NCBI GenBank assembly: GCA_040752415.1
Contig: JBFMGU010000003.1
Location: 1 to 64,000, forward strand
Length of the DNA: 64,000 nucleotides
Origin: Myxococcota bacterium
GTDB taxonomy: Bacteria; Myxococcota; JACRCW01
Direction: 5' to 3'
A program made the translations under genes and the position numbers. Positions within the stretch are counted from its first letter, which is position 1; the number at the start of each line of letters is the position of its first letter. The notes under the pieces were generated by a model. It worked only from the letters and a program-made list of their open reading frames with translations, made no database searches and was not told the DNA's origin. Shown here one piece after another: positions 9,945 to 29,382 of this stretch.

Positions 9945-9962
9945 CCGTGTGGAGCTGGGGTC

Positions 9963-10960: not shown

Positions 10961-11144
10961 CGGCGTGAAGGCCGGCTGATTCCCTGACGAGCCCCGGGTT
11001 CGGGCTGCGCATTGTTGCGTGGTCCGCCCGGCCCGTCACCGGCCCACCCATCCACACGCAGAACTGCAACCTCTGTCGTCGTCGGTGATGCCGCCGCACG
11101 CGCTGCGTGTGCCCGGTGTCTCCGAAAGCGCGGGCTGAACCACC

Positions 11145-12755: not shown

Positions 12756-12765
12756 CGGAGTCACC

Positions 12766-15700
12766 ATGAGCACGCACAACCACGCGCACGAAACTCCCCG
12801 GGACCCCCGCGAGCGCCTCCGTCACGAGGTGGAGCACGCCAGTCATCTGCTCGCGGCGCAGGGGCCCATCCGCACCTTTGTGCACCACAATACGCTGCAT
12901 GGCCTGCAACACCTGCACTTCGACGACGCCATCCGGGAAGCGGAGCGCGTGCTGGGAGGGCAGGGTTATCTGCCGGTGGAGACGTTCCGGCGCCTGCACG
13001 TCGAGGGACGTATCCCGCGGGACCAGCTGCTGCGCGCGCTGGAGGAGCTGTCCGGCCTGCCCCTGACCGAGAAGCCAGCGGCCAACGTCACCGTGCGCGA
13101 CGTGGTGATGGCCCACCTGCTCCACGGCGTGGACCGGGCGTCTCCGTCGGAGTTGGCGTGGGAGATCGAGGGGCGGGGTGCGTTGGGCCGCTTGCGCGGG
13201 GACCTGCCGGCGGACGTGCGCGCGCAGTTGCTGCGGAAGGCCCACGACGAGCTGGAGCGTGGAGTTGCGCGCATTGGCGTGGAGTGGACCATCTCGGACT
13301 GGCTGGGCTCCATCACCGGTCTCGACGTGGCCGGGCATGTCACACGGGTTGCCGCGAGCGGAGGAGACGCCGGTGGCGCGGAACGCGCGTTGCGCGAGCT
13401 GGGGATTCCCGTCGAAAAGCGGGCGGGATACGTCGAGCTTGCGCAGCGTCGATGTCCTTCCGGACCGGACGCGTGGCTGCACCTGGAGGCGTTGACCGTG
13501 TCCGCGCTGGCGGAACGGCATTGGAGCGTGGAGGGAAATCTTCCGTCGCTGCAGCGCCACTTCCGAGAGCACGTGGAGGCCTATGCCGCCGAGACGCTTT
13601 GGCGCGCCTGCCTGGGCATCTGGGCCCTCGAGGACCCCACGTCTCCGACGGACGCCGCGTTGTCCCCGCGCGACCCGCACGGAGGCGTGGCCGAGCAGGC
13701 GTGGATCCATGCGGAGGAGATGGAGGCGGCCGGCGGTCCCGCGGTCACGTTGACGTCGTCACAGGTGGCCACCGTCCAGGCGCTGCTGACGCGAGCGGAC
13801 GAGGGTGACCACGCACGCCTGTGCTGGACCATCCAGCGCGAGTTGCGGGCAGCGGAGCTGGGGCGCGCAGGCTTGGAAGCGCTGCGCACGTTGCTCTCGC
13901 TCCACGCCGATGAAGTGGCTGCCAGGTTGCAGGAAGAGCTGCGCACGCAGGACCCGCACGCGCGCATGCTCGCCCACGCCCACGACGTCGCGACGAGCCT
14001 CATGGACGGACTGGCACACGGTTCCACCCACCGTGACGTTCTCCTGGCGGTCACCGGCGTCGACGTCAACGAGCGCGTGCATCCACGCATGTTGGAGCTG
14101 TGCTCCGCGTTCCTCGACGGAGGGATGGCCACCTGGCGCATGCCCGGTCGGACGCTCGGCCTCTACGACGCGTGGCGGAACCATGCTTCGCATGTGCTCG
14201 ATCTCGGAAATCCCGACGACCAGGAGCTGAAGTCGGCGCTCGCGGAGCTTCCCGTGCTGCCCGTGGACGCGGTGTTGCAGTCGCTGCGCGCGCTTGGTGT
14301 CGAGGAGGAGGCGTGGGGAGGGTACCTGGGACGCATCCTGCTGCAGCTGCCGGGATGGGGCGGGATGATCAGCTGGATGGAGCGCTCCGGACGACGGGAA
14401 CGCTCCGTGGACCTGGTGCAATTCCTCGCGGTGCGACTGTTCCTCGAACGGATGGAGATTGCGCGGCTGGCGCGTCGGACGTGGCACGTGGAGGGGACCA
14501 CCGAGGGCCTGCGCCAGTATTTCCTGACCCACCCCGAGGAGATCGTGGTCCGGCGGGAGCTGTTCTCCGGTTCCCTCCCCGAGCACCTGGCGGAAACCGC
14601 GCGACACCTCTGCCACGACGAGAATCCCCGACACCGCGCCGGTTGGACCTCGCTCGCGAATCTCCTGTGGCACCACCACGAGATCACCGGCGGCATCTCC
14701 GCGCATGACCACGCCTGGCGTCTCTTCCACCTCTCGCAGCTGCTGGGCCTGGGCGCCGAGGAGGTCCGTGCGCTGACCCGCGACGACGCCACGGCGCTGC
14801 TGAGGGTGCTGGACGGGTTTCCCGTCGAGAAGCACCGGCGCATCTGGCAGGCCGCGTATGAAAGCACCTACCGCGACCAGGTCCTGGACGCGCTCTGGCA
14901 GAACCGCGGGCGTGGACGTTGGAAGGACCGCCCGACGAGACCGCGCGCGCAGATTGCTTTCTGCATCGATGACCGGGAGGAGTCGTTCCGTCGTCACGTG
15001 GAGGAGATTGACCCGGAGTACGAGACGCTGGGCGTGGCCGGGTTCTTTGGCGTGGCCGTGCACTACCAGGGTCTCGACGACGAGGCGGCCAGCGCGCGCT
15101 GTCCCCTGGGTGTGAACCCGCAGCACCACGTGCGCGAGGTGGCGCAGGAGGATGCGGGGCGACAGATGGCGCGTCATCGCTCGGAGTCACGCTGGCAGCA
15201 GGCGGTTTCCGACGTGTTGTGGGAGCTGCGTCGCAGCCTGGTGGGCAGCTACTTCCTGGTGGACCTGGTGGGGGCGGTCTCGGCGGTGCCCTTGCTTGGG
15301 CGCGTGGCGTTCCCCGGCGCGTTTGACGACGTGGCGAACCGCGTCCGTAGCCCCATGAACACCGCCGTTCCCACCCGCCTCACCGTGGACGCGCGGGAGG
15401 TGGACGGACGCCGCAGCGGGTTCACCACCGCCGAGCAGGCCGACCGCGTGGAAGCCACGTTGCGCAACATGGGATTGACGTCGGGATTCGGGGCGGTGGT
15501 GCTGCTGTTTGGTCACGGATCCATCAGCGTCAACAATCCACACCTTTCCGCGTACGACTGCGGCGCGTGCGGCGGCAACCACGGTGGCCCCAACGCACGA
15601 CTCTTCGCCGCCATGGCCAATGCGCCGGAGGTGCGCGCGGTGCTGGCCACACGCGGCATCGTGATTCCCGACGACACCTGGTTCGTGGGCGCGGAGCACA

Positions 15701-16524
15701 ACACCTGCAATGAGCTGCTCACGTACTACGACACCGACGTCATTCCCGCGTCCAACAAGCAGGCCTTCGCGGAGCTGGTGAAGGACATGGAGGAGGCGCG
15801 TCGACGTTCCGCGCACGAGCGGGCTCGGCGTTTCCGGTCCGCGCCGCGCAATCCCACGCCGGAGCGCGCGTTGCGGCACGTGCAGGAGCGCGCGGTGGAC
15901 CTCAGCCAGGCGCGACCGGAGCTGGGACACGCCACCAACGCCTGCGCCGTCGTGGGGCGGCGGTCCCTGACGCGCGGGGTGTTCCTGGATCGCCGCGCGT
16001 TCCTCATCTCCTACGACGCCACGCAGGACCCCACGGGGAGCATCCTGGAGCGCATCCTGATGGCGGTGGGGCCGGTGGGGGCGGGCATCAACCTGGAATA
16101 CTACTTCTCCACCGTCGACAACCTGCGCTTCGGCTGCGGCTCCAAGGTGGTGCACAACGTCAACGGGCTGCTCGGCGTGATGGACGGTCCGCGCAGCGAC
16201 CTGCGTACCGGGCTCCCCAAGCAGATGGTCGAGATCCACGAGCCCATGCGGCTGCAGATGATCGTCGAGGCCAGCACGGAAACCCTCGGCGCCATCTACG
16301 GACGACAGAAGCCGTTGCAGGAGCTCATTGGCAACGCGTGGGTGCACCTGGTGGCCGTGGACCCGCACAGCGGGGAGGCCTCGGTGTTCACGCCTGGCCG
16401 GGGATTCGTGCCCTGGACGCCGCCGGGGAGCGCGCTCCCAACGGTCAAGGCCTCGTCGGACTGGTACCGCGAAAAAGCGGATTTCATTCCTCCCGCGCTG
16501 ATCCAGGGGGACCGCCATGCTTGA
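12766..16524 (+). CDS. DUF2309/DabA-like protein (putative beta-CA-like CO2-hydrating subunit of a DAB-type complex), unusually long (1252 aa)
   Basis: N-terminal AAQGPIRTFVHHNTLHGLQH matches the conserved DabA/UPF0753 N-terminus. Internal FCIDDREESFRRH (CxDxR) and GHGSISVNNPHLSAYDCGACGGNHGGPNAR (His/Cys) resemble the Zn-ligand motifs reported for DabA. It starts 11 nt after the upstream ND4-like gene, and its 3' end overlaps the next gene by 8 nt. Confidence 0.8.
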   Translation: MSTHNHAHETPRDPRERLRHEVEHASHLLAAQGPIRTFVHHNTLHGLQHLHFDDAIREAERVLGGQGYLPVETFRRLHVEGRIPRDQLLRALEELSGLPLTEKPAANVTVRDVVMAHLLHGVDRASPSELAWEIEGRGALGRLRGDLPADVRAQLLRKAHDELERGVARIGVEWTISDWLGSITGLDVAGHVTRVAASGGDAGGAERALRELGIPVEKRAGYVELAQRRCPSGPDAWLHLEALTVSALAERHWSVEGNLPSLQRHFREHVEAYAAETLWRACLGIWALEDPTSPTDAALSPRDPHGGVAEQAWIHAEEMEAAGGPAVTLTSSQVATVQALLTRADEGDHARLCWTIQRELRAAELGRAGLEALRTLLSLHADEVAARLQEELRTQDPHARMLAHAHDVATSLMDGLAHGSTHRDVLLAVTGVDVNERVHPRMLELCSAFLDGGMATWRMPGRTLGLYDAWRNHASHVLDLGNPDDQELKSALAELPVLPVDAVLQSLRALGVEEEAWGGYLGRILLQLPGWGGMISWMERSGRRERSVDLVQFLAVRLFLERMEIARLARRTWHVEGTTEGLRQYFLTHPEEIVVRRELFSGSLPEHLAETARHLCHDENPRHRAGWTSLANLLWHHHEITGGISAHDHAWRLFHLSQLLGLGAEEVRALTRDDATALLRVLDGFPVEKHRRIWQAAYESTYRDQVLDALWQNRGRGRWKDRPTRPRAQIAFCIDDREESFRRHVEEIDPEYETLGVAGFFGVAVHYQGLDDEAASARCPLGVNPQHHVREVAQEDAGRQMARHRSESRWQQAVSDVLWELRRSLVGSYFLVDLVGAVSAVPLLGRVAFPGAFDDVANRVRSPMNTAVPTRLTVDAREVDGRRSGFTTAEQADRVEATLRNMGLTSGFGAVVLLFGHGSISVNNPHLSAYDCGACGGNHGGPNARLFAAMANAPEVRAVLATRGIVIPDDTWFVGAEHNTCNELLTYYDTDVIPASNKQAFAELVKDMEEARRRSAHERARRFRSAPRNPTPERALRHVQERAVDLSQARPELGHATNACAVVGRRSLTRGVFLDRRAFLISYDATQDPTGSILERILMAVGPVGAGINLEYYFSTVDNLRFGCGSKVVHNVNGLLGVMDGPRSDLRTGLPKQMVEIHEPMRLQMIVEASTETLGAIYGRQKPLQELIGNAWVHLVAVDPHSGEASVFTPGRGFVPWTPPGSALPTVKASSDWYREKADFIPPALIQGDRHA

Positions 16525-18553
16525 TGTCGTCATCCTGCTTGTTCCCGCGCTCCCGCTGCTGGCGGCCGCGTTGCTCGGCGTGTTGTGGGCGTCCGGTCGC
16601 ACGTTGGCGGAACGGACCGTCAGCCGGATGGTGTGTGGCGCCATCGGCCTCTCGCTCGTCGGGTCGGCGTTTGCGTTGACCCAGGTGCTCACGCTCCATC
16701 ACGGCGTGGAGGTGCGCGCGTGGCGCTGGCTGGAGAGTGGTCGCTTCACCGTGGACGTGGCGTTCCTCGTCGACCCGCTCTCGGGCGTCATGATGACGCT
16801 GGTTTCCCTGCTGTGCCTGGTGGCGTCGTGGTTTGCACGCAACTACATGCACGCGGAGGCGGGGTTCACGCGCTTCTTCGCCCTGGTGAGCCTGTTTGCC
16901 GGCGCCATGCTGGTGCTGGTGATGGCCAACAACTACGTCGTCATGTTCGCCGGGTGGGAGCTGGCGGGCATCTGCTCGTACCTGCTCATTGGCTACCAGC
17001 ATGAGCGCACCTCCGCGGTGCAGGGCGCCACGAGGGCATTCATCACCAAGCGCGTGGCGGAAGTGGCCCTGGTGTTGGGCATCCTGCTCGTGTTCGTGCA
17101 GTTCGGGACGGTGGACTACACGCGGGTGTTCGGTGCGGTGGGTGGATTGTCGACGGAGATGGCCAACGTCATGGCGCTCTGTCTGTTCCTGGGCGCCGCG
17201 GGGAAGGCCGCGCAGCTTCCGTTCGCCACGTGGTTGCCACGCGCCATGGAGGGGCCCACGCCGTCGAGCGCGCTCTTCTACGGCGGCACCATGGTCTCCG
17301 CGGGGGTGTACCTGGTGATCCGCAGCCAGCCCATCTTCAACGCCGCGCCCAACGTGCTGGTGATGGTGGCCATGGTGGGCGTGCTCACCGCCGTGTACGG
17401 CGCGCTCGTCGGGTGGGTGCAGACGGACGTGAAGAGCATCCTGGCGCATTCCGTCATGACGCAGCTGGGGCTCATGTTCCTGGCGTGCGGGCTGGGGGCG
17501 TACACCGCGGCGGTGCATCACCTGGTGGCCCACGCCGTCTTCAGCACGCTGCTCTTCCTGACCGCGCCCTCCATCCTCCTGCGCCTGCGCGACGCGAGCC
17601 CGCGTGAACACGGCGACCGCCACCAGATGACGACGCCACAGTGGCTCTTCATCCTCGGCGTGGCGGGCCTGATGGCCATGCCGTTCGTATCCGGCTGGTG
17701 GGAGACCGACGAGCGCGGCGCGGCATTCGAGGACGCCGGTCACGTGCTGCTGGCTTTTGGCGCGAAGGCGGCGTTCGGCACGGTGGTGCTCTCGTCGCGC
17801 GCGGTGCAACGCGCCTTCGGTGGTCCGCTGGGATCCTCGGTGCTGCGCGTCATGGTGATCAGTCTGGTCGCCGTGGGGCTCGCGGTGGCCGTGCAGCAGA
17901 CGGTGCTCGCCGGTGGGATCGACCAGGGCTGGTTCCAGCGTTTCATGGGCGGGCCGGATGTGAAGCACGGCGACGTGGCCCCGCTGCTGCTCCACGCCTT
18001 GATGCTGGTGCTGCTCGTGGCGCTTACCGTGGGCTGGCTCGGTGCGCTGTACTTTGACCGGCAGCAGCCCGAGGTCCACGGCGCGCTGATGGTCCGGTTG
18101 CGCACGTTGCACGCGGTCGCGTTGCGACGGTTCCATCTCGAGGATCTGCAGGAACGCTGGTTGGTGGCGCCGTTGCTGCGGCTGGGGCGCTGGCTGGACC
18201 GCGTGGATCGTCGGGTCATTGACCGCGCCATGGGGACGCCGGGGCCCGCGCAGCAGGTGCGCAGCGTGCTGGCGCAGTGGGAGGAGCACGTGGCCACCGG
18301 CGGTGCGGTGTCGTCGGAGGGACGGGGCCTGGGACCGGCGCGGGGGCTCATGGGGACGCTGGCGGAGGTTGCTGCGGCGTTCTCGTCGGCGTTGGAGCGC
18401 TACGTCATTGGAATGCTGGTGGGGCGGGGCGTGCCGCAGACCAGTGGCCTGCTGGGGCGGGCGCTCAACGGGCTGGAGCACGTGGTGGGCAAACCCGTGG
18501 TGCTGGGGGCCGTCGTGGCGGCTGGAGCCCTGATGCTGTTGGGGGTGCGTTGA
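16517..18553 (+). CDS. complex-I antiporter-like subunit, NuoL/ND5/MnhA family (DabB-like)
   Basis: 678 aa. ND5/NuoL-type motifs: FAGWELAGICSYLLIGY, AGKAAQLPFATWLPRAMEGPTPSSALFYGGTMVSAGVYLVIRS, SILAHSVMTQLGLMF. Long C-terminal extension typical of L-type subunits. Overlaps DabA-like stop. Confidence 0.8.
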   Translation: MLDVVILLVPALPLLAAALLGVLWASGRTLAERTVSRMVCGAIGLSLVGSAFALTQVLTLHHGVEVRAWRWLESGRFTVDVAFLVDPLSGVMMTLVSLLCLVASWFARNYMHAEAGFTRFFALVSLFAGAMLVLVMANNYVVMFAGWELAGICSYLLIGYQHERTSAVQGATRAFITKRVAEVALVLGILLVFVQFGTVDYTRVFGAVGGLSTEMANVMALCLFLGAAGKAAQLPFATWLPRAMEGPTPSSALFYGGTMVSAGVYLVIRSQPIFNAAPNVLVMVAMVGVLTAVYGALVGWVQTDVKSILAHSVMTQLGLMFLACGLGAYTAAVHHLVAHAVFSTLLFLTAPSILLRLRDASPREHGDRHQMTTPQWLFILGVAGLMAMPFVSGWWETDERGAAFEDAGHVLLAFGAKAAFGTVVLSSRAVQRAFGGPLGSSVLRVMVISLVAVGLAVAVQQTVLAGGIDQGWFQRFMGGPDVKHGDVAPLLLHALMLVLLVALTVGWLGALYFDRQQPEVHGALMVRLRTLHAVALRRFHLEDLQERWLVAPLLRLGRWLDRVDRRVIDRAMGTPGPAQQVRSVLAQWEEHVATGGAVSSEGRGLGPARGLMGTLAEVAAAFSSALERYVIGMLVGRGVPQTSGLLGRALNGLEHVVGKPVVLGAVVAAGALMLLGVR

Positions 18554-20082
18554 TGGAAACGTTTCCGCTGTTGAGCGCGTTGCTGTTCCTTCCGTTGGTG
18601 GCGTCGGTGACCATGACCGCGCTGCGCGACGAACGGGTGGCGCGCCTGGCCGCGTGGGCCTTCGCTGGCGTCGAGCTGTTGCTGGCCGGTGTGATGATCC
18701 TGCGCTTCCAGTCTGGTGTTCCAGGGCCGCAGCTCGTCGAGAACGGGTTCCTCATCCCGGGTCTGGGAGTGCAGTACCACCTCGGTGTCGACGGAATCAG
18801 CGCGTTGTTCGTCCCGGTGGCGGCGCTGATGACCCTGCTCATGGTCCTCCACACCGACGAGCAGGCAGGCGGCGCGCGGCAGAACCTGGCGTCCATCTTC
18901 GCCATGGAGGCCAGCACGGTGGGCGTGCTCGTCTCGTTGGACCTGGGGCTGTGGTGGCTGTTCCTCACGCTGGAGGTGTGGCCCGCGTACCTGGTGATCC
19001 GACGCTGGGGCACCGGGGAACGTCGTCACGAGGTGGCGCGCAGGTTCGCGGCGTTCATGGCGGTCAGCGTGGTGACCTCGTTGGCGGCCGTGGTCTGGCT
19101 CCGCGTGCAGGGCGCGGGACGGCCGTTTCCCCTCAGCGTGACGTCGTGGATGCAGGATCCGCTGGCCGCCGCGGCGCAGGAGCCGGTCTTCCTCCTGTTG
19201 CTGTTGGCGTTGGCCATCCGCATCCCCGTCTTCCCGTTCCACACGTGGCTTCCCCAGGTGGTCGAGCACGGTCCGCTCGTCGGGGTGACGGTGTTCTTCC
19301 TGGGGCTCAAGGTGGGCGCGTACTCACTGCTCCGCGTGGTCATCCCGGTGCTCCCCGACGCCGCGCAGCACTGGGCGTGGTTGATGGCCGGCCTGGGCGT
19401 GGCGGGGCTGTTGCACGGCGGGCTGATTGCCATGGTGGAGCCGAATCTCCGTCGCATGCTGGCGTTCGCGAGCGTGAGTCACGTCGGCGGAGTGCTGCTG
19501 GGAATTGCTTCCCTCACCATGGCGGGGTTCCAGGGCGCGTTGCTGCAGATGCTGAGCCTGGGCGTCTGCGTGGTGTGCCTGTTCTTCCTCGCGGGTTTCC
19601 TCCAGCGGCGGACCGGCGCCGTCGACGCGCCGTCCCTCGGCGGACTGGTGCACCGCGTGCCGCGGCTCTCGGTGGTCTTCCTCGTCATGGCCATGGCGTG
19701 CGTGGGCATGCCGGGCACCAGCGGTTTCAACGGGGAGCACCTCATCATGCTGGGCGCGCTGCGCGCGAACTGGCTCTGGGGCCTGGCCGCGGGTGTGGGA
19801 ACGTTGCTGAGCGCCGCGTACTTCCTCATCTACTTCCAGCGCGCCTTCATCCGCGCGCCCGTCGTCAACACGGCTTCTCCCATCTCCGACCTGACCGCGC
19901 GGGAGTGGCTCACCTGTGGAACGTTGTGCGCGCTGGTGTTCTGGTGCGGTCTCTTCACCGGTCCGTTCCTCGACGTGATGAACGGTTCACTCAAGTCGCT
20001 GGCCCACAAGGTCGACCGTCGCGCGCACACCACCGTGACCACGCTGGAGCAGCAGCCGGGGAGCAACCATGCCCTTGAATGA
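18553..20082 (+). CDS. complex-I antiporter-like subunit, NuoM/ND4 family
   Basis: Start METFPLLSALLFLPLVASV shares the A of the upstream TGA (TGATG). Motifs LGVDGISALFVPVAALMTLLMVL, WWLFLTLEVWPAYLV, FPFHTWLPQVVEHGP. Confidence 0.75.
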   Translation: METFPLLSALLFLPLVASVTMTALRDERVARLAAWAFAGVELLLAGVMILRFQSGVPGPQLVENGFLIPGLGVQYHLGVDGISALFVPVAALMTLLMVLHTDEQAGGARQNLASIFAMEASTVGVLVSLDLGLWWLFLTLEVWPAYLVIRRWGTGERRHEVARRFAAFMAVSVVTSLAAVVWLRVQGAGRPFPLSVTSWMQDPLAAAAQEPVFLLLLLALAIRIPVFPFHTWLPQVVEHGPLVGVTVFFLGLKVGAYSLLRVVIPVLPDAAQHWAWLMAGLGVAGLLHGGLIAMVEPNLRRMLAFASVSHVGGVLLGIASLTMAGFQGALLQMLSLGVCVVCLFFLAGFLQRRTGAVDAPSLGGLVHRVPRLSVVFLVMAMACVGMPGTSGFNGEHLIMLGALRANWLWGLAAGVGTLLSAAYFLIYFQRAFIRAPVVNTASPISDLTAREWLTCGTLCALVFWCGLFTGPFLDVMNGSLKSLAHKVDRRAHTTVTTLEQQPGSNHALE

Positions 20083-21586
20083 GATCATGGCGTTGCAGCA
20101 GGTGGGCTTCCCCATCCTGACCACGCTCATCCTGCTCCCGGTGGCGGCGATCTTCGCATTGCTGGTGGCGCCGGTGAGCTGGTCGCGGAGGGTGGGTTAC
20201 GTGGCCGCGGCGCTGGAGCTGGCGTTGTCCGTGCTCCTGGTGGCGCGCTTCCGGCCCGGCGTGGCGGACATGCAATTCGTGGAGCGCGCCAGCTGGATTC
20301 CCACGCTGGGAGTGAACTGGCACGTCGGTGTCGACGGCATCAGCCTGCTGTTCATCCCGCTGACCTGTTTGCTGACGCTGCTGGTGCTCATCCAGCGCGC
20401 GCCCTCCGCCAAGGTCCACCCGCGCGGGTGGCTGGCGTGCATGTTGGGGTTGCAGGCGGCCACCGTCGGGGTGTTCGCAGCGCTGGACCTGATCCTGTTC
20501 TTCATCTTCTGGGAGCTGACGCTCATCCCCACGTTCTTCCTCGTGTCCCGTTGGGGCTTCGGTCCGCATCGACGGTTCGCCGCCGTGAAATACGTGGTGT
20601 TCATGCTTGTGGGCTCGGCGCCGTTGCTGGTAGCCAACATCATCCTGGGCACCCACGCGGCGCGCATTACCGGCAACTTCGTCGGAGCGTTCGACCTCAC
20701 CGCGCTCCTCGCCACGCCGCTTCCCGTCGAGCTGCAGACCCAGGTGCTCTTCCTGCTGGTGCTGGGGTTCGCCGTGAAGGCGCCCATGTTCCCGTTCCAC
20801 ACCTGGCTGCCCGCGCTGCTGCTGGAGGGGCCCGTCGGGATCGGGGTGTTCATGGTGGGTGTGAAGCTCGGCATCTACGGGCTCGTCCGCCTCGCCATTC
20901 CGCTCGCTCCCGACGCGGCTCGCGAATGGGCCACGGCGGGCATGGCCTGGGGGCTGGTGGGCGTCCTCTATGGCGCGCTCGTGGCGCTGAGCCAGGACAA
21001 CCTCCGTCGGATGCTGGCGTTTCTCGGCGTCAGTCACGTGGGGTTGATGGTCATGGGCCTGTTCTCGCTCAATGTGCAGGGCGTGCAGGGCGCGCTGCTG
21101 GTGATGCTCAACATGGGGATCACCTCCACGGGACTGATGTTCCTCCTCGGCGCGCTCTACGCGCGCACCGGCTCGTCGGACCTGACGGCGCTGGGCGGAT
21201 TGGCGCGACATGCTCCCATGCTCACCACCGCCTTCTTCGTCCTGGCGCTGGGCTCCATGGGTGTCCCGGGAACCAGCGGGTTCAGCAGCGAGCAGGTGCT
21301 GCTGTTGGGCGCATTCAAGGCCCACGGGGGCTGGGCGGCGGCCGCGCTCGTCGGTGCGCTGGTGGGTGCCGCGGCGCTCATCTGGGCCTTCCAACGCGCC
21401 TTCGTCGGTCCCGCCAGCCCACGCCGCGTCGACGATCTGCTCCCCCGCGAGAAGGCCGTGGCCGCCGTTCTCGTCGTGCTCGTGCTTGCCCTGGGGCTCC
21501 ACCCGCGACCGGTGATGGAGACCAGTCGCGCCGCCGTGGATGCCTTCCACCAACGTCTCAACCTTCGCGTCACCGCGTCACGCTGA
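20069..21586 (+). CDS. complex-I antiporter-like subunit, NuoN/NuoM (ND2/ND4) family
   Basis: 505 aa. Motifs VGVDGISLLFIPLTCLLTLLVL, ILFFIFWELTLIPTFFLVSRWG, MFPFHTWLPALLLEGPVGIGVF. Overlaps upstream gene by 14 nt. Confidence 0.75.
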   Translation: MPLNEIMALQQVGFPILTTLILLPVAAIFALLVAPVSWSRRVGYVAAALELALSVLLVARFRPGVADMQFVERASWIPTLGVNWHVGVDGISLLFIPLTCLLTLLVLIQRAPSAKVHPRGWLACMLGLQAATVGVFAALDLILFFIFWELTLIPTFFLVSRWGFGPHRRFAAVKYVVFMLVGSAPLLVANIILGTHAARITGNFVGAFDLTALLATPLPVELQTQVLFLLVLGFAVKAPMFPFHTWLPALLLEGPVGIGVFMVGVKLGIYGLVRLAIPLAPDAAREWATAGMAWGLVGVLYGALVALSQDNLRRMLAFLGVSHVGLMVMGLFSLNVQGVQGALLVMLNMGITSTGLMFLLGALYARTGSSDLTALGGLARHAPMLTTAFFVLALGSMGVPGTSGFSSEQVLLLGAFKAHGGWAAAALVGALVGAAALIWAFQRAFVGPASPRRVDDLLPREKAVAAVLVVLVLALGLHPRPVMETSRAAVDAFHQRLNLRVTASR

Positions 21587-21602
21587 ACCGTCAGAGGTCC
21601 CC

Positions 21603-23234
21603 ATGCAGACCGATTCCGTCGTCAAGGAAAAGCCCGTCGCCAAGAACGTTGCACCGCCGCCCGCGCAGCCCGCGTCGGCGACGCCCAAACCGGACGCGCC
21701 GGACCTGCGTCCCACCGCGAACATCAAGTACGACCTGCCCGCGGGCCTGGTGGTCTTCCTGGTGGCGCTGCCGCTTTGCCTGGGCATTGCGCTGGCCTCC
21801 AACGCGCCGCTGTTCTCCGGCGTCATCGCGGGGATTGTGGGTGGCCTGGTGGTCCCGTTCATCAGCGGCTCACCGCTCAGCGTCAGCGGTCCCGCGGCGG
21901 GACTGGCGGCGATTGTCTCCATGGGCATTGCGCAGGTGGGCGGCTTCCCGCAGTTCCTGGCGGCGGTGCTCCTGGGCGGCGTCATCCAGATCCTGCTCGG
22001 CGCGTTCCGGCTGGGCGCGGTGGCGTATTTCATCCCCTCGTCGGTGATCAAGGGCATGCTCACCGCCATTGGCCTGCTCCTCATCTTCAAGCAGCTCCCG
22101 CACGCCATCGGTTATGACGTCGACAACTTTGCCTCCGTGAAGTTCAAGGCCGCCGACGGCAACACCTTCAGCGTGCTGCTGGACTCGGTGAAGACCATGG
22201 AGTGGGGCGCGTTCCTCATCAGCGCGGTCTCGCTCGTCATCCTGGCGGGTTGGGAGCACACGCCGCTCAAGAAGATCTCGTTCCTCCCGTCGGCACTGGT
22301 GGCGGTCGTTGTTGGCTCGCTCATCAATGAGGGACTGGTGTCGTCGGGCTCCGCGCTGGCGTTGGGGAGCACGCACCTGGTGGACCTTCCGCCCATGGAC
22401 GGCGTGGGTGGCTTCGTGGCGCAGCTGCAGATGCCGCAGTGGAGCGCGTTCACCAACCCGCAGGTGTGGGTCATGGGGCTCACGCTTGGCATCGTGGCGT
22501 CGTTGGAGACGCTGCTCAGCATTGAGGCGGTGGACAAGCTGGACCCGTTCCACCGCAAGAGCCCGCTCAACCGTGAGCTGCTGGCGCAGGGCGCGGCCAA
22601 CGCCACCTCCGGTCTCATCGGCGGGTTGCCCATCACCGCCGTCATCGTGCGCAGCAGCGCCAACGTGAATGCCGGTGCGCGCACGCAGGCCTCCGCCATC
22701 TTCCACGGTGTGTTCCTGTTCCTCGCGGTGGTATTCGCCGGGAGCCTGTTGGTGCACATCCCGCTGGCGTGCCTGGCCTCCATCCTGCTCATGACCGGCT
22801 ACAAGCTGGCCAAGCCCGCCATGTTCCGCGCCATGTTCCAGCTGGGTTGGGGTCAGTTCATCCCGTTCATGGCCACCATCGTCGCCATTGTGTTCACCGA
22901 CCTGCTGCGCGGCATTGGCGTGGGCTTGGTGGTGGGCCTGGCGTTCGTGATCCGCGCCAACATCCGCGACGCGTTCACCGTCAAGAAGCACGGCTCCAGC
23001 TATCTCATCCTGCTGCGCAAGGACGTGTTCTTCTACAACAAGGCCGTGCTCATCCAGGCGCTGGAGCGCATCCCGTCGGGCGCCAGCGTGATTGTCGACG
23101 GAGGCAGCACCGAGTTCATTGACATGGACATCTACGAGGCGGTGCTGGCCTTCAAGGCAGGCGCCGCGGCGCGCAACATCAACGTGGAGCTGCGGCTGCG
23201 CGCGCCCGGCGTCATGGCGCCCGCGGCGCATTGA
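21603..23234 (+). CDS. SulP-family anion transporter with C-terminal STAS domain (BicA/sulfate-permease-like)
   Basis: Start MQTDSVVKEK is preceded by GAGG 7 nt upstream. The listed ORF 21540.. overlaps the previous gene and is less likely. SulP hallmarks: LVVFLVALPLCLGIALASNAPLFSGVIAGIVGGLV.. Multiple TM segments. C-terminal STAS-like fold (YLILLRKDVFFYNKAVLIQALERIPSGASVIVDGGSTEFIDMDIYEAVLAF). Confidence 0.8.
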   Translation: MQTDSVVKEKPVAKNVAPPPAQPASATPKPDAPDLRPTANIKYDLPAGLVVFLVALPLCLGIALASNAPLFSGVIAGIVGGLVVPFISGSPLSVSGPAAGLAAIVSMGIAQVGGFPQFLAAVLLGGVIQILLGAFRLGAVAYFIPSSVIKGMLTAIGLLLIFKQLPHAIGYDVDNFASVKFKAADGNTFSVLLDSVKTMEWGAFLISAVSLVILAGWEHTPLKKISFLPSALVAVVVGSLINEGLVSSGSALALGSTHLVDLPPMDGVGGFVAQLQMPQWSAFTNPQVWVMGLTLGIVASLETLLSIEAVDKLDPFHRKSPLNRELLAQGAANATSGLIGGLPITAVIVRSSANVNAGARTQASAIFHGVFLFLAVVFAGSLLVHIPLACLASILLMTGYKLAKPAMFRAMFQLGWGQFIPFMATIVAIVFTDLLRGIGVGLVVGLAFVIRANIRDAFTVKKHGSSYLILLRKDVFFYNKAVLIQALERIPSGASVIVDGGSTEFIDMDIYEAVLAFKAGAAARNINVELRLRAPGVMAPAAH

Positions 23235-23237
23235 GTC

Positions 23238-23620
23238 CCCCCAAGAAGGAAGTCAGGAGTCAGAAGTCAGAAGATGGTCCCGCGACGACGACGGGTAGGC
23301 ATCTTCTGAAGGGGCGTTGGAGAAGTTCCGACAAGGGCGTCACAACGGAGAGTGTGGTCCTGCCCTGCTTGTTGCGGCGGGCGAGCCCGCACCTGGCAAT
23401 GTGGCGGCGCCAAGCGCGTCACGAAGCGGGTGGGCGGAAGCAGCGGCGCCCTGGAGTGCGGTGCGAACCGAGCGAGCGGTCGACGACGTGAAGCACCGCC
23501 CTGGATCGGGCCGCTCCGACGGCGCATCCGACAGACCCTCAGAAGGTGCTCTCCCGTCGTCGTCACGGGACCAACCTTCTGACTTCTGACTCCTGACTCC
23601 TGACTTCCTTTTGGGATCCC
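23238..23620. repeat. long imperfect palindrome: ~75-bp inverted-repeat arms (GGAAGTCAGGAGTCAGAAGTCAGAAG...GGTCCCGCGACGACGACGGG...) separated by ~235 bp
   Basis: Left arm 23238-23312 and right arm 23545-23620 are reverse complements with only a few mismatches. The outer parts carry a tandem GTCAGAA/GTCAGGA motif. A nested second inverted pair (GTCCCGCGACGACGACGGG / CCCGTCGTCGTCACGGGAC) sits inside. Intergenic between SulP and a hypothetical gene. Confidence 0.7.
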
Positions 23621-23674
23621 CGACAACCCATGACCCACATTGCGACCGCAGATCGCGACCTCTAACGTCAGGGC

Positions 23675-24226
23675 GTGCCGCGCCCGTCCATTCCCCGCGC
23701 CGTGCCTCCCGCCACGCCCGCGGGTGTCATCTCCGCGCGGCCCGGATTGCGTGGTCACGACGGGCGTTGGCCGCGTCGCATCCTGGGCCTGATGCTGTTG
23801 CTGGCGTGCATCCCCGCCACCTGCATGGCGGTGGTGGACCGCCTGTTTCCCACCGAGGGGAGCTTCGCCAACCTGGCGGCCATGCGGGAGCGCGGCTGGC
23901 ACGTGCCCACGTTCGTCCCGCCTGTGGCGACGGAGATCCGCGTGTGGAGCCATCCGCCGGCGCGCACGTGGGCCATGCGGTTCCGTTTCCCGACGGGGAA
24001 TCCCTGGATCTCGTCGCACGGCGTGGAGGTGCCCACCGCGGAGGTGCCCTACCGTCTGCCCACGGAGCAGGTTCCCCCGTGGTGGCCCCCGGAGCTCGAC
24101 GGCGCACGCGCGGTGGGAGCGCAGCCGGGTGTGACGTACGTGCGGTTCCACCGGTCGCGGAATTCCTCGTTCTTCTGCGCGGTCACGGCGGAATCCGTGG
24201 CGCACTGCTGGCACCGGCGACACTGA
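23675..24226 (+). CDS. hypothetical membrane protein
   Basis: 183 aa. One clear TM helix (ILGLMLLLACIPATCMAVV). No recognisable domain. Codon usage is consistent with neighbours. Confidence 0.3.
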   Translation: MPRPSIPRAVPPATPAGVISARPGLRGHDGRWPRRILGLMLLLACIPATCMAVVDRLFPTEGSFANLAAMRERGWHVPTFVPPVATEIRVWSHPPARTWAMRFRFPTGNPWISSHGVEVPTAEVPYRLPTEQVPPWWPPELDGARAVGAQPGVTYVRFHRSRNSSFFCAVTAESVAHCWHRRH

Positions 24227-24287
24227 GTTGCACGGCTGGTTTCCCCGGGGCGGTCCTGCTAGGAGGGGGCCCGGAACCGAGCAGCCC

Positions 24288-24653
24288 ATGCCCAATCCCG
24301 CCGACATTGCCAAAGTGCGTGCGTTCATTTCCCGCGAGCTGGACACCATCAGTGAGTACGTCGCCATGGCGGAGGCCGCCGAGGACCCCGTGGTGAAGGA
24401 GCTCTTCATCCACGTGGCGCGCGAGGAGAAGGAGCACGTGGCGGAGGGCATGCGCCTGTTGCACGCGCTGGATCCGGATCAGGCCAGCGTGGAGTCGGCG
24501 CACGCGGAGGCGCTGCTGGGCGGGGCGGCGGGCTCGTCGTTGGGGCCGTTGGCCACGCCCGTGTCGTCGGCCGCGTCCACGCCCGCTTCCGCGCCGCCGG
24601 ATGGCCCCGGGAAAGGCACCTTCACCGTAGGCAACCTCCGACGGGGCGCCTGA
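24288..24653 (+). CDS. encapsulin cargo: ferritin-like (EncFtn/rubrerythrin-like) protein with C-terminal targeting peptide
   Basis: Start MPNPADIAK is preceded by AGGAGGGGG. ExxH ferritin-like helices (VAREEKEHVAEGMRLLHALD). Disordered Ala/Ser/Pro linker, then C-terminal ...GKGTFTVGNLRRGA, resembling the TVGSLR-type encapsulin cargo-loading peptide. Immediately upstream of an encapsulin shell gene. Confidence 0.7.
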   Translation: MPNPADIAKVRAFISRELDTISEYVAMAEAAEDPVVKELFIHVAREEKEHVAEGMRLLHALDPDQASVESAHAEALLGGAAGSSLGPLATPVSSAASTPASAPPDGPGKGTFTVGNLRRGA

Positions 24654-24709
24654 CCTCCCACGTTGTTATCTTCCTCCCACCCGCATTCCGGTTTGCACGG
24701 AGACACTCC

Positions 24710-25594
24710 ATGCCCACCCCTCCCAGCTATCACAGCTACACCGGTCACGCCGAGAACCCGCTGACGCCCGACGAGTGGAACAAGATGCGCGCCGCGGTCA
24801 TCGAGAGCGCCACGCGTCACATGGTGGGACGTCGGATCATTGACGTCTACGGTCCGCTGGGGCCGGGCGTGCAGAGCCTCCCGTTCGAGCAGTTCGCCGA
24901 CGCTTCGCTGGGCACCGTGGACCTGATTGGTGAGAAGAGCGAGGGCGCGGTGGTGGCGGAGAGCCGTCGCTTCAAGCCCATCCCGATGATCCACAAGGAC
25001 TTCGTGCTGCACTGGCGTGACCTGGAGGCCAGCCGTGGCGGGGCCTTCCCCCTCGACGTCTCGGCGGCGGCGGGCGCGGCCTCGCTGGTGGCGCGGGCCG
25101 AGGACCGGCTCATCTTCTTTGGCAACGCGGAGCTGGGTTACGACGGGCTCATGAACGCGCAGGGCCGCTCCCACGTGGAGATGCGGTCCTGGGAGCGCAC
25201 CGGCGGCGGGTTCGAGAACGTGGTGGAGGCGCTGGAGGTCCTGCTGGCGCACGGTCACTACGGCCCCTACGCCATGGCCGCCAGCCCCAAGCGCTTTGCG
25301 CAGCTGCACCGCGTCTACGAGAAGACCGGCGTCCTCGAGATCGACTCGATCAAGAAGGTGGTCACCGAGGGCATCTTCCAGTCCACCGTGCTCACCGGGG
25401 ACCAGGCGGTGGTGATTGCCGTCGGGAGCGAGCACTTTGACCTGGCGGTGAGCGTGGACGTGGACCTGGCGTACCTGGGCGCGGAGAAGATGAACCATCC
25501 CTTCCGCGTGCTGGAGTGCGTGGCGCTGCGCATCAAGCACCCCGACGCCATCTGCACCTTCGAGGCGGGTCCGCAGCGTCGTGGCAAGGGCTGA
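24710..25594 (+). CDS. family-1 encapsulin shell protein (HK97 fold, linocin M18-like; EncA-like)
   Basis: 294 aa. About half the residues match M. xanthus EncA as I remember it (GHAENPL..EW, VGRRIxDxYGPLG, KDFxLHWRD, PLDVSAAAGAA, GHxGPYA, YEKTGVLEI, MNHPFRVLE..LRIKHPDAICT). Confidence 0.85.
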   Translation: MPTPPSYHSYTGHAENPLTPDEWNKMRAAVIESATRHMVGRRIIDVYGPLGPGVQSLPFEQFADASLGTVDLIGEKSEGAVVAESRRFKPIPMIHKDFVLHWRDLEASRGGAFPLDVSAAAGAASLVARAEDRLIFFGNAELGYDGLMNAQGRSHVEMRSWERTGGGFENVVEALEVLLAHGHYGPYAMAASPKRFAQLHRVYEKTGVLEIDSIKKVVTEGIFQSTVLTGDQAVVIAVGSEHFDLAVSVDVDLAYLGAEKMNHPFRVLECVALRIKHPDAICTFEAGPQRRGKG

Positions 25595-25630
25595 GGCGCA
25601 GGCCGCAGCGGGAAGGAAGATGAGGCGGTC

Positions 25631-26923
25631 ATGACTGGCGTGGTCTGCGTTGGTGCGCAGTGGGGGGATGAGGGCAAGGGCAAGATCGTGGACCTGCTGG
25701 CGGAGCGCGCCGACGTGGTGGTGCGCTTCCAGGGCGGCAACAACGCCGGGCACACGCTGGTGGTGGGCGGAGTGCAGACGGTCCTGCACCTGATTCCCAG
25801 CGGCGTGCTCCACCCGGGCAAGCTGTGCGTGATTGCCAATGGCGTCGTGGTCGACCCGGACGTGCTGCTCTCCGAGGTGGAGACGCTGCAGGCGCGCGGT
25901 CACCTCAAGGACCCTTCCCGGCTGGCGGTGAGTCACCAGGCACACGTCATCCTGGACATCCACAAGCGCATTGACCTGGCGCGGGAGAAGTACCTGCCGC
26001 GCAAGATCGGCACCACGGGGCGCGGCATTGGTCCGGCGTACGAGGACAAGGCGGCCCGTCGGGGATTGCGCGTCCTGGACCTGATGAAGAAGGAGACCTG
26101 GGCGGACCTGCTGCGCGCGCGCGTGTCCGGTGCCAACACCTATCTCGCGGGCCTGGGCGCGCCCCCGGTGAGCGGTGCCGAGCTGGAGGAGATGATCGAG
26201 AAGACGCGTCGCACCGCGGACGCGCTGCGGCCTTTCGTGCGCGACACCGTGGTGCTGCTGGATGAGCAGCGTCGCGCGGGGAAGCACATCCTGTTCGAGG
26301 GCGCGCAGGGCACGCTGCTCGACGTGGATCACGGCACCTACCCGTACGTGACCAGCTCCAACACAGTGTCCGGCGCGGCGTGCGCGGGGGCCGGCGTGGG
26401 GCCCACGGCCATCCAGCGCGTCATTGGCGTGTGCAAGGCGTACGCAACCCGCGTGGGCGAGGGACCGTTCCCCACCGAGCTCCACGACGAGATTGGCGAG
26501 CGGCTGCGGGGCCGGGGGCTGGAGTTTGGCGCCACGACGGGTCGGCCGCGGCGTTGCGGTTGGCTGGACATGGTGAGCCTGCGTCGGGCGGTGCGTCTCA
26601 ACGGCGTGGACTGCCTGGCGGTGACCAAGCTGGACATCCTCTCCGGGCTGAAGCCGCTGAAGGTGGCCGTGGCGTACGAGGTGGATGGCAAGCGCGTCGA
26701 GGAGTACCCGGCGGACACCGAGGAGCTCGCGCGGGCCAAGCCCGTCTACATCGACATGCCGGGTTTCGACGGTGACGTCACCGGGGCTCGTCGCCTGGAG
26801 GACCTGCCGCCGAACGCGCGCGCGTACGTGGAGTGGATTGCGCGGGAGCTCGGCGTGAAGCTGGCGTTGGTGAGCGTGGGCGCGGGTCGTGGCGAGGAGA
26901 TCGCGCTGGACCCCGTGTTCTGA
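25631..26923 (+). CDS. purA: adenylosuccinate synthetase
   Basis: GAQWGDEGKGKIVD P-loop, GGNNAGHT, KIGTTGRGIGPAYEDK, GATTGRPRRCGWLD are canonical PurA motifs. 430 aa. Confidence 0.9.
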   Translation: MTGVVCVGAQWGDEGKGKIVDLLAERADVVVRFQGGNNAGHTLVVGGVQTVLHLIPSGVLHPGKLCVIANGVVVDPDVLLSEVETLQARGHLKDPSRLAVSHQAHVILDIHKRIDLAREKYLPRKIGTTGRGIGPAYEDKAARRGLRVLDLMKKETWADLLRARVSGANTYLAGLGAPPVSGAELEEMIEKTRRTADALRPFVRDTVVLLDEQRRAGKHILFEGAQGTLLDVDHGTYPYVTSSNTVSGAACAGAGVGPTAIQRVIGVCKAYATRVGEGPFPTELHDEIGERLRGRGLEFGATTGRPRRCGWLDMVSLRRAVRLNGVDCLAVTKLDILSGLKPLKVAVAYEVDGKRVEEYPADTEELARAKPVYIDMPGFDGDVTGARRLEDLPPNARAYVEWIARELGVKLALVSVGAGRGEEIALDPVF

Positions 26924-26960
26924 GGCGTTGCGGTTCTCGCGGTGACGTCGTCATCCCCAA

Positions 26961-27127
26961 CCGGCGCGGCCCCTCCGGTGCCTCCCCGAGGTGACGGCGC
27001 AGCGTGACGCGTGGGTTGGGTTGGGAGGGTGTGGCCGGGGGGCCCGCGGAAGGTTCACTTGTCCCAAGGTGTATTACACCTCAAAGAGAACATGACATGC
27101 CCGGCGAGGGGCCCCCCTCCGCACCGG
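26961..27127 (-). repeat. dispersed ~150-bp repeat, copy A (palindromic core GGTGTATTACACC; conserved CCCTCCCAACCCAACCCACGC block)
   Basis: The reverse complement of 26961-27127 aligns nearly base-for-base with 27261-27385 and partly with 39441-39600. Confidence 0.65.
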
Positions 27128-27260
27128 AACCGGTGACACCGACGGTCACCTGACGCGCTGATCCGGATCACCTGGGTCCGGGCGCACGCGGTGGCAGGCG
27201 GCGCATGCCGCTGTTTCAACGTACCCGAAAGCGGCCGGGTGACGGGGCCCGTGCGGCGAT

Positions 27261-27385
27261 CATGTCAAGTCTTGTTTGAGGTGTAATACACCTTGGGGCA
27301 AGTGGAGCTACCGCGGGCCCCCCGGCCACACCCTCCCAACCCAACCCACGCATCACGCTGCGCCGTTACCTCGGGGAGGCACCCC
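27261..27385 (+). repeat. dispersed ~150-bp repeat, copy B (inverted relative to copy A, ~130 bp spacer)
   Basis: CATGTCAAGTCTTGTTTGAGGTGTAATACACCTTGG...CCGCGGGCCCCCCGGCCACACCCTCCCAACCCAACCCACGCATCACGCTGCGCCG. Lies in a convergent intergenic region (purA 3' end / minus-strand gene 3' end). Confidence 0.65.
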
Positions 27386-27413
27386 AAGCGGCCCATCCCG
27401 CGGCGCGCGAAGG

Positions 27414-28013
27414 TCAGACCATGCCGGGGCAATCACCGAACGCGACGACGGCGTTGCGCGCTTCCTCACTCAGCGTGGTGAGGCGCACGCGCCAGCGACC
27501 CTGGTCCTGCACGGCCATCACCGCCCGCGTGACGACGCCGCCATCCACGCTCTCGATGATGGCGCTGCGGTCCGGCTTGAAGTTGAAGCGGCCGCGGTCC
27601 TCGGGCCACTCGAAGAAGACCACCATGCCCGCCTTGGGCTCCACCGGCCCGCCGCGCGGGTAGTAGAGGCTCATGCGCTGCAGGCAGTGTCGCACGTTGG
27701 CGTGGCGACGGAGGAAGTACCCGGCCTTGGGCGTGTTGGCGCCCCCGCCGATCTTCCGGTAGCCGCCCGGGTCGCGCTGGTAGTCGGCGAGCATGGCTTC
27801 CCGGAGGTGGGGCTCGGCCGCGAAGGGGAAGACGTCCAGGGGCGTGAGGGGGCCGCGGCGCCAGTCCCAGCCGTCGTCGGTGGTGGCGCCAATGAGGCCC
27901 TTGGCACGCTCCAGGAGGCGCTTGCGAGCCATCTCCCGCGCGGGGCTGTCAGCGCCCGAGGACGTCTGGGGAGTGCCGCCAGACTTCATGCCCAATGTCC
28001 TCACCACGGCCAT
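27414..28013 (-). CDS. hypothetical protein
   Basis: 199 aa ORF with consistent GC3 bias. No family recognised. Start codon uncertain (alternatives at MKSGG or MARKRL). Confidence 0.35.
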   Translation of the reverse strand: MAVVRTLGMKSGGTPQTSSGADSPAREMARKRLLERAKGLIGATTDDGWDWRRGPLTPLDVFPFAAEPHLREAMLADYQRDPGGYRKIGGGANTPKAGYFLRRHANVRHCLQRMSLYYPRGGPVEPKAGMVVFFEWPEDRGRFNFKPDRSAIIESVDGGVVTRAVMAVQDQGRWRVRLTTLSEEARNAVVAFGDCPGMV

Positions 28014-28173
28014 GCCATGAACCCATGCGTGCGCAAATGTTCTTTCCTCCCGGGAGTTTACGACGACGGGTCCCGGAAGTCATTGCGCCCGTGGCCTGGC
28101 CCCCGGCTGGGACGTCCAAGCCCAGGTCCGAGCGCGTGCCCGCCGGCCGGGTGCGAGGTAACTCCGCGTCCTG

Positions 28174-29382
28174 ATGGCTTCCCCCACGCTGGTCCAGGCC
28201 CCCACCGGGGTCTACGTGCACGTGCCCTACTGCCGGCACCGCTGCCCGTACTGCGACTTCTACCTGGTGGTGGGCCGCCCCACGCCCGCGTTCACCGACG
28301 CCCTGTTGGCCGATTGGTCCGCCGCACGGGAGCTCCTGGCGGGGGTGTCCACGCTGGAGAGCGTGTACCTGGGCGGAGGCACGCCGGGGCGGATGGCGCC
28401 CGGGGAGGTGGGACGGCTGCTGGAGGCCATCCACGCCGCCATCCCGCTGAAGGCCGGGGCGGAGGTCACGCTGGAGGTGAACCCCGACGACGTCACGGCG
28501 GAGACGCTGGCGGGATGGCGCGCCGCGGGCGTGACCCGGATCTCGCTGGGCGTGCAGGCGCTCGACGACGCCACGCTGCGCTGGCTGGGGCGCGGACACA
28601 GCGCGGAGGAGACGTTGGGCGCGTTGGAGGCGGTGGCGGCCGCGGGGTTCCCCACGTTCTCGGCGGACATCATCTTCGGCGCGCCGCAGCAGCCGCTCAG
28701 CGCGCTGGACGAGGCAGTGCGCATCATGGCGGGCCTGGCGCCGCACATCAGCGCGTACTGCCTGACCTACGAGGAGAACACCAACCTGGGCCGGCGCGTG
28801 GAGAAGGGACGCGTGATGCCCTTGGACAACGACGTGGAAGCCGACCTCTACGAGCGCGTCCGCGACGGGCTGCACCGCGCGGGGCTGCGACAGTACGAGG
28901 TGAGCAACCACGCGCGCCCGGGACACGCGGCGGTGCACAACCGGCTCTACTGGGCGGGCGCGCCCACGCTGGGCCTGGGGCCGGCGGCAGCGTCCTACCT
29001 GCGCTTCTCCGACGGAACCGCGCGGCGCTGGCGCGTGGCGCCCGACCTGGACGCGTACCTGCGTGGAGAGCGGCGTGCGGTCGACGTCGACGAGATGGCG
29101 CCGGCGTTGGCCCTCCGCGACCGCATCTTCGCCGGCATCCGCGACCTGGAGCGCGGTGTGGACCTGCGTCGTCTCGAGGTGGAGCACGGGGTGGGGGTGC
29201 CGGATGACGTCGTGGCCGCGCTGGAGCGCGAGGTGGCGGCGGGTGCGCTGGAGCGGGTGGGGGAGGGCCGCTACCGGCTCACCCCGTCGGGCGCGCTGGT
29301 GGGGGACCGGGTGGCGCGCGGTGTGGTGGCCCGGGATGACGACGGAAACCGTCCGTCTCCGCTGACCGTGCTTCCGTCTTGA
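28174..29382 (+). CDS. hemW: radical SAM heme chaperone HemW-like (HemN family, oxygen-independent coproporphyrinogen-III oxidase-like)
   Basis: VYVHVPYCRHRCPYCDF (CxxxCxxC radical-SAM cluster motif at the N-terminus), YLGGGTPG, HemN-like C-terminal domain. About 400 aa. Confidence 0.75.
   Translation: MASPTLVQAPTGVYVHVPYCRHRCPYCDFYLVVGRPTPAFTDALLADWSAARELLAGVSTLESVYLGGGTPGRMAPGEVGRLLEAIHAAIPLKAGAEVTLEVNPDDVTAETLAGWRAAGVTRISLGVQALDDATLRWLGRGHSAEETLGALEAVAAAGFPTFSADIIFGAPQQPLSALDEAVRIMAGLAPHISAYCLTYEENTNLGRRVEKGRVMPLDNDVEADLYERVRDGLHRAGLRQYEVSNHARPGHAAVHNRLYWAGAPTLGLGPAAASYLRFSDGTARRWRVAPDLDAYLRGERRAVDVDEMAPALALRDRIFAGIRDLERGVDLRRLEVEHGVGVPDDVVAALEREVAAGALERVGEGRYRLTPSGALVGDRVARGVVARDDDGNRPSPLTVLPS

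Follow-up and report, generated by a model that had tools for sequence, protein, structure and literature searches.

A cargo gene and a shell gene at 24288–25594

The 64-kb stretch analysed here, referred to as the window (positions 1 to 64,000 of contig JBFMGU010000003.1 from the Myxococcota bacterium assembly GCA_040752415.1), carries two adjacent genes on its forward strand which code for a putative encapsulin nanocompartment. The cargo gene (24288–24653; ATG at 24288, stop at 24653) codes for an EncB/EncC-type encapsulated ferritin-like protein of 121 aa. On the same strand follows the shell gene (24710–25594; ATG at 24710, stop at 25594), whose 294-aa product is an EncA-type shell protein of the family 1 encapsulins. 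The spacer between them (24654–24709) is 56 bp long, carries a GGAG ribosome-binding site 7 nt ahead of the shell ATG, and shows no terminator-like site. A two-gene encapsulin pair had been proposed for this region in an earlier reading of the sequence (the original prediction), and both open reading frames (ORFs) were found in place. The GC content at third codon positions (GC3) is 0.89 for the cargo gene and 0.92 for the shell gene; it is 0.90 for the nearby purA and SulP-family genes, in a window of 68% GC.

The shell protein scores far above the cut-offs of the encapsulin models, as the original prediction would have it: 216.2 bits against Pfam PF04454 Linocin_M18 (cut-off 24.3) and 272.1 bits against the NCBIfam equivalog NF041155 encap_f1 (cut-off 100), where the match covers model positions 5–261 of 261. 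Its best matches among solved structures are those of Myxococcus xanthus EncA (7s4q, 7s20, 4pt2; E ~1e-109). The alignment with EncA is ungapped, with 155 of 276 residues identical (56%), which agrees with the earlier estimate of about one half. T=4-type and other large shells match at E values from 1e-63 to 1e-77, and T=1 shells (T. maritima, M. tuberculosis, H. ochraceum) at just 1e-10 to 1e-15. The HK97 protomer fold (A-domain, P-domain, E-loop) is indicated by homology, namely by the 56% identity to EncA over 276 of the 294 residues. With E<=1e-30 as the limit, a protein search returned 530 relatives, the majority of them from Myxococcota. NCBI holds an identical sequence, called ‘family 1 encapsulin nanocompartment shell protein [Myxococcota bacterium]’, on a 94-kb contig of a metagenome-assembled genome (MAG). 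Judged by the curated models (PF04454 and NF041155), by its fold as deduced from homology and by its operon cargo, the protein belongs to the family 1 encapsulins.

The stop-to-stop frame of the cargo gene opens upstream of the ATG at 24288, with a TTG at 24228. The resulting 60-nt extension shows no coding bias (GC3 0.75 vs 0.89 for the cargo gene). The start of the 55% identical cargo homologue from locus L130, which is preceded by a clear GGAGGA site, aligns with the ATG at 24288, and the match to the EncB profile begins at this same position. For these reasons, we favour the ATG at 24288 as the start of the cargo gene.

Fold, iron ligands and targeting peptide of the cargo protein

The cargo sequence is also present at NCBI in identical form, named only ‘hypothetical protein AB2A00_00865’; a separate exact look-up of it returned no entry. 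Compared to the PDB as a single sequence, it has EncB as its best match (E 2.6e-13). A profile made from 10 cargo sequences retrieves EncC (E 1.9e-28) and EncB (1.4e-26), followed by the encapsulated ferritins from P. furiosus, R. rubrum, N. europaea, and H. ochraceum. For the R. rubrum encapsulated ferritin (Rru-EncFtn), the E value is 0.05 with the single sequence and 1e-9 with the profile.

In an alignment of 10 cargo homologues, residues E17, Y24, E46, E47, E49, and H50 are invariant; these include the di-iron ligands E17, E47 and H50, together with Y24, on which the original prediction depended. The spacing of the ligand set E17/Y24/E47-x-x-H50 (7/30/3) is the same as that of E32/Y39/E62/H65 in Rru-EncFtn. 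In the latter protein, mutation of the metal ligands E32, E62, and H65 lowers or abolishes ferroxidase activity, and Y39 is a highly conserved neighbour of these ligands (PMC11202242). The cargo had been described as having ferritin-like ExxH helices, which holds for the ligands and the fold; the plural has to be corrected, there being one ExxH per monomer (E47-K-E-H50). For EncFtn proteins in general, a complete di-iron site requires a dimer.

An AlphaFold2 (AF2) model computed from the homologue alignment has two helices at residues 4–30 and 34–61, with a predicted local distance difference test score (pLDDT) of 93–99, and a shorter helix at 63–80; it is disordered from residue 82 to the C-terminus. 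For residues 1–60 as a whole, the pLDDT exceeds 90. The protein can thus be divided into a two-helix ferroxidase hairpin (residues 4–61), a short third helix (63–80), a disordered linker (81–110), and a targeting peptide (111–119). The top Foldseek matches of the model are encapsulated ferritins exclusively, with EncB (7s5k) in first place. The hairpin superimposes on EncB with a root-mean-square deviation (rmsd) of 0.6–0.8 Å, a template modelling score relative to the target, TM(target), of ~0.9, and 47% sequence identity. AF2 and Foldseek thus agree on the two-helix ferritin-like hairpin, which is half of a four-helix bundle. By its fold, its ligands (Glu, Glu-x-x-His, and Tyr) and its tail, AB2A00_00865 counts as an EncB/EncC-type encapsulated ferritin, though it stays below the scores of the curated hidden Markov models (HMMs).

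The tail of the cargo, ...GKGTFTVGNLRRGA, contains the C-terminal targeting (cargo-loading) peptide TFTVGNLRR (24618–24644, forward strand), which is followed by Gly-Ala and the stop codon; it was delimited by a motif scan and by conservation among homologues. The motif [LIVFT][TS][VIL]G[SNTDA]L[RK] occurs a single time in the six frames of the 64 kb, 3 residues before the cargo stop. Across the cargo homologues, the tail reads [LF]TVG[SGN]L[RK], with T113, V114, G115, and L117 invariant. It aligns with the tail of EncC (LTVGSLRR) and with the modelled M. xanthus peptide EKRLTVGSLR, so that its assignment to the cargo-loading class of family 1 encapsulins in the original prediction stands. Sequence identity among the homologues amounts to 51% for the helical domain, 17% for the linker, 74% for the tail, and 6% for the last two residues; besides the catalytic helices, the tail is the only conserved segment of the protein. 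In the linker, 23 of the 30 residues are Ala, Ser, Pro or Gly, and an alanine- and proline-rich disordered region has been described for cargos that carry a targeting peptide (PMC11126975). An operon cargo gene whose product bears its targeting peptide at the C-terminus, as is typical of family 1, is thus present: the cargo ends in TFTVGNLRRGA and its gene lies 56 bp before the shell gene. When the 64-kb window was searched for a second cargo (EncC- or EncD-like) by means of the cargo profile and of a relaxed tail pattern, no candidate emerged; the 636 stop-to-stop segments with a minimum length of 50 aa contain a single cargo and a single shell.

In the highly loaded T=3 shell from M. xanthus, the targeting peptide was modelled as EKRLTVGSLR, with L, V, and L in hydrophobic pockets and with ionic and hydrogen bonds to the shell residues R28, R34, D38, D213, and D243 (PMC10402063). 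Transfer of this pocket to the shell from the window rests on an inferred one-residue offset in the M. xanthus numbering. With this offset, R41, D45, and D250 are kept and are invariant in 24 relatives. E220 takes the place of D213, as Glu does in a few relatives. Four of the five peptide-contacting side chains would thereby be kept or conservatively replaced.

Related loci, neighbouring genes and upstream sequences

A pattern-based genome scan with the shell returned 7 distant loci with 37–50% identity and missed the cultured Myxococcaceae; the relatives used here came from protein searches. In all six related loci that were read (L001, L005, L008, L129, L130, and the P0002 contig), the cargo gene lies directly 5' of the shell gene. 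The cargo has 146 aa and ends in ...RTVGSLFRADRKR in L001, and has 109 aa and ends in ...WSVGSLKVRSV in L005. Locus L129, from Archangium violaceum, codes for a 159-aa EncFtn-like cargo and has a gene for a sigma54-dependent response regulator downstream of the shell gene (5883–7301); such a gene is also found downstream of the shell gene in L008 (7259–8692). The closest relatives are L130, whose shell is 75% identical, and the P0002 contig, and both have purA downstream of the cargo-shell pair (in L130 within the block 8892–12147).

In the window, purA (adenylosuccinate synthase; 25631–26923, forward strand; PF00709 583 bits, NF002223 597 bits) lies directly beside the pair, as had been noted earlier, and starts 36 bp past the shell stop. 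It is followed by a small reverse-strand ORF (27414–28013) not assigned to any family and by a gene for a radical SAM enzyme (28174–29382). This order, from the shell gene through purA and the small ORF to the radical SAM gene (25631–29382 in the window), is shared with L130 and the P0002 contig, and the gap between the shell gene and purA, which is free of terminator-like sites, is ~30–36 bp in all three. No purA was found next to the shell gene in L001, L005, L008, or Archangium L129. Since the adjacency is absent from these more distant relatives, we attribute it to lineage synteny and do not count purA as a component of the compartment; its candidacy as a functional partner was rejected because the adjacency is confined to the closest lineage. 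By read-through, purA may still be co-transcribed with the cargo-shell pair.

Upstream of the cargo gene lies a 183-aa ORF (23675–24226, forward strand; GC3 0.88) with a hydrophobic N-terminal segment. It has no match in Pfam, NCBIfam, or PHROG and is not kept upstream of the cargo in the related loci, which is why we dropped it as a candidate third component. The ORF probably represents a real gene with the look of an orphan, and its product is possibly membrane-anchored.

Further upstream is a cluster of genes on the forward strand (11145–23234) which resembles an inorganic-carbon pump and comprises DabA-like, NuoL/M-like, and SulP genes. The DabA-like protein (12766–16524, 1252 aa) matches PF10070 with 844 bits; the 747 positions of this profile are spread over residues 22–1193, which points to large insertions in the protein. 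Its gene is flanked by four genes for PF00361 NuoL/M-like membrane proteins (11145–12755, 16517–18553, ~18559–20082, and 20069–21586), all on the forward strand. A gene for a SulP-family transporter (21540–23234, forward strand) closes the cluster at a distance of 1053 bp upstream of the cargo gene, in line with the distance of about 1 kb given in the original prediction. This proximity to the encapsulin genes is not conserved in the relatives and is thus without demonstrated meaning.

A sigma54-type -24/-12 element, TGGCGCACTGCTGGCA, is found at 24198–24213 on the forward strand, 75 nt before the cargo ATG. The window has no other match, yet chance alone would produce 0.72, and the relatives lack such an element ahead of their cargo genes. 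We keep the element at 24198–24213 as a candidate promoter, as a lead only. The gene for a sigma54-dependent response regulator next to the shell gene in Archangium violaceum and in L008 hints at sigma54 control in some Myxococcota. Upstream of the cargo gene in L001 (5410–5470 of that locus), an AT-rich region carries palindromic repeats of the TGCA/ATTGCAAT type, unlike the GC-rich upstream region in the window; these repeats could be an operator, perhaps a Fur-like one, in that lineage.

The intergenic region between the stop of the SulP gene (23234) and the 183-aa ORF (23675–24226) holds a long imperfect inverted repeat (23241–23615). Its outer arms consist of tandem AGTCAGR heptamers, three on the left and four on the right; further complementary arms are found at 23275–23321 and 23527–23573, and TCCCC occurs at both flanks. 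Folded as RNA, the region 23235–23620 reaches -223 kcal/mol (z = -9.2 vs shuffles). The repeat is the sole copy in the window, which gave no match to Rfam at the gathering thresholds, neither for this repeat nor elsewhere. In a metagenome scan, the heptamer array was found in at least 120 contigs, 8 of which have convergent pairs 19–417 nt apart. The insert within one such pair (L057) codes for a small protein which weakly matches PF05635 23S_rRNA_IVP (27.7 bits, below the cut-off); no trace of such a protein was found in the element at 23241–23615. The repeat may be a hairpin element or an element similar to miniature inverted-repeat transposable elements.

Proposed working, alternatives and meaning

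We consider it very likely that the two genes together make up a family 1 encapsulin system of the EncA/EncB type known from M. xanthus, in an uncultured member of the Myxococcota. This is directly supported by the homology of both proteins, by the presence of the ligands, by the fold of the cargo, by the conservation of its tail, and by the gene order. Assembly, T number, cargo loading, ferroxidase activity, and physiological role are inferred by analogy from relatives which have been solved or tested. The 294-aa HK97-fold shell protein would self-assemble into an icosahedral cage, most likely a T=3 cage of 180 subunits with a diameter of ~32 nm. It would capture the cargo during assembly, with TFTVGNLRR docking in a pocket which each subunit has on its inner face. 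The cargo is expected to pair into four-helix dimers, as do EncB and EncC; in solved relatives, such dimers are stacked as decamer rings. At the dimer interface, E17, E47, and H50 would make up a di-iron ferroxidase centre, with Y24 close by. Fe(II) would enter via the shell pores, would be oxidised at this centre, and would be laid down as a ferric mineral inside the shell, and this deposit would both store iron and keep it from Fenton chemistry.

Several observations weigh against this assignment. The cargo stays below the cut-offs of four curated models: PF22277 EncFtn-like (23.8 bits vs 27), NF058679 EncB_fam (68.3 vs 90), TIGR04535 (42.8 vs 125), and the exception model NF058678 EncB (71.2 vs 210). 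An HMM search had been proposed as a check of the cargo; it thus failed for the EncFtn and EncB models, and a rubrerythrin model was barely passed. The tail has GNL where the canonical peptide has GSL, a variant which is also seen in the homologue P0010. In the shell, T35 is found at the presumed equivalent of R28, where 22 of 23 relatives have Arg (again by the inferred offset), and the residues ahead of the hydrophobic core of the peptide are GKGTF, compared to EKRL in M. xanthus. Because both of these differ from M. xanthus, a small co-adjustment of peptide and shell pocket is conceivable from the sequences. The AF2 model of the shell, computed from a 24-sequence alignment, was unusable (mean pLDDT 36) and was discarded. 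A scan of 23100–27300 revealed no relevant sigma-70-like promoter or terminator; its single terminator-like match falls within the shell gene, below what chance would give. The best match to a Fur box upstream of the cargo gene (9 of 19 positions) is no better than in shuffled sequence.

Within the same kind of system, the shell might have another geometry, T=1 (~24 nm) or T=4 (~42 nm), in which case the iron capacity would be unlike that in M. xanthus. The T number cannot be read from a sequence, the T=4 shell from Q. thermotolerans is also a strong match (E 1.9e-74), and M. xanthus EncA forms some T=1 shells when it is expressed without cargo (PMC10402063). However, among solved relatives the T=3 shell EncA stands closest by far and T=1 shells are remote, which makes another geometry unlikely. 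A more far-reaching proposal would combine a distinct EncFtn sub-clade, a re-tuned interface between peptide and shell (GNL and Thr), and co-transcription with purA which would couple the compartment to adenylate synthesis; we regard this combination as quite doubtful. The cargo might also be loaded without being mainly iron-mineralising, for example as a rubrerythrin-like enzyme acting on peroxide or oxidative stress, or as a structural or nucleic-acid-related factor. The only Pfam cut-off passed by the cargo is indeed that of PF02915 Rubrerythrin, and this barely (23.1 vs 22.8 bits), with the scores for EncFtn and EncB falling short as listed above; furthermore, the M. xanthus encapsulin has been suggested to protect DNA (PMC9321382). 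This is nevertheless highly improbable: the cargo has the full EncFtn ligand set with exact spacing, its best matches by sequence, profile, and fold are encapsulated ferritins, and its 121 aa hold no rubredoxin or other extra domain.

That the shell gene codes for the HK97-type major capsid protein of a phage or prophage, with the adjoining small ORF being unrelated, is effectively refuted. Weak matches of the shell protein to PHROG 264 (major head protein) at 28 bits and to Pfam Major_capside at 20.7 bits, the latter below its cut-off, are expected from the shared HK97 ancestry. Encapsulin models, however, score 216–272 bits, the adjoining ORF carries a conserved encapsulin targeting peptide, and terminase, portal, protease, and tail genes are absent nearby, where the neighbours are purA and the genes for the radical SAM enzyme, the SulP transporter, and the NuoM-like proteins.

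Assigned to the EncA/EncB type, the pair belongs to a known kind of system, as had been predicted: an EncA-clade shell together with an EncB/EncC-like cargo, as studied well by structural and biochemical work in M. xanthus (MXAN_3556/3557; PDB 4pt2, 7s20, 7s2t, 7s5c, 7s5k; McHugh 2014 and Eren 2022, as cited in PMC10402063 and PMC11202242). In both cases, a gene for a ferritin-like cargo lies directly 5' of the shell gene, the shells being 56% identical. The helical domain of the cargo is 47% identical to that of EncB, superimposes at ~0.8 Å, and has the same ligand set. It is likewise followed by a disordered Ala/Pro-rich linker and an xTVGxLRR tail, and, with the offset numbering, most of the shell residues in contact with the peptide would be kept. 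EncB differs in having 158 aa with an N-terminal extension, which the cargo from the window lacks; being shorter than EncB and without this extension, the latter is closer in size to EncC (130 aa). The tails also differ, being L-T-V-G-S-L-R-R in M. xanthus and F-T-V-G-N-L-R-R-G-A in the window, as does the shell residue at T35, a conserved Arg elsewhere; the window cargo remains under the cut-offs of the EncB and EncB-family HMMs, and the 64 kb hold no counterpart of the secondary cargos EncC and EncD. A further difference, to Archangium L129 and L008, concerns the downstream neighbour, which is purA in the window and the sigma54-dependent response regulator gene in those loci.

The classical EncFtn systems (Rhodospirillum rubrum Rru_A0973/4, Haliangium ochraceum, and the Pyrococcus furiosus fusion) share the two-helix fold, the spacing of the E/Y/ExxH ligands, the C-terminal localisation sequence on the cargo, and an adjoining family 1 shell gene. 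They are much more distant in sequence, and the shells from R. rubrum and H. ochraceum are T=1, whereas the shell from the window falls in the EncA (T=3) clade. The T=4 encapsulin/IMEF system from Quasibacillus thermotolerans, a Firmicute, has a clearly homologous large-format family 1 shell for iron mineralisation; in contrast to the cargo described here, which has the two-helix EncFtn form, IMEF is a four-helix bundle.

The locus is a routine further example of a well-studied iron-storage compartment, which matters little beyond annotation and resolves no outstanding biological question. The hypothetical protein AB2A00_00865 is reassigned as the ferritin-like cargo of the adjacent shell, which was already annotated. 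As this case illustrates, curated EncFtn and EncB models miss divergent short cargos. For encapsulin engineers, the locus adds one more natural variant of the targeting peptide (TVGNLRR) and one variant of the shell pocket (R to T). For the organism itself, by analogy with characterised relatives, the assignment would provide this Myxococcota MAG with a high-capacity system for iron storage and for protection against oxidative stress.

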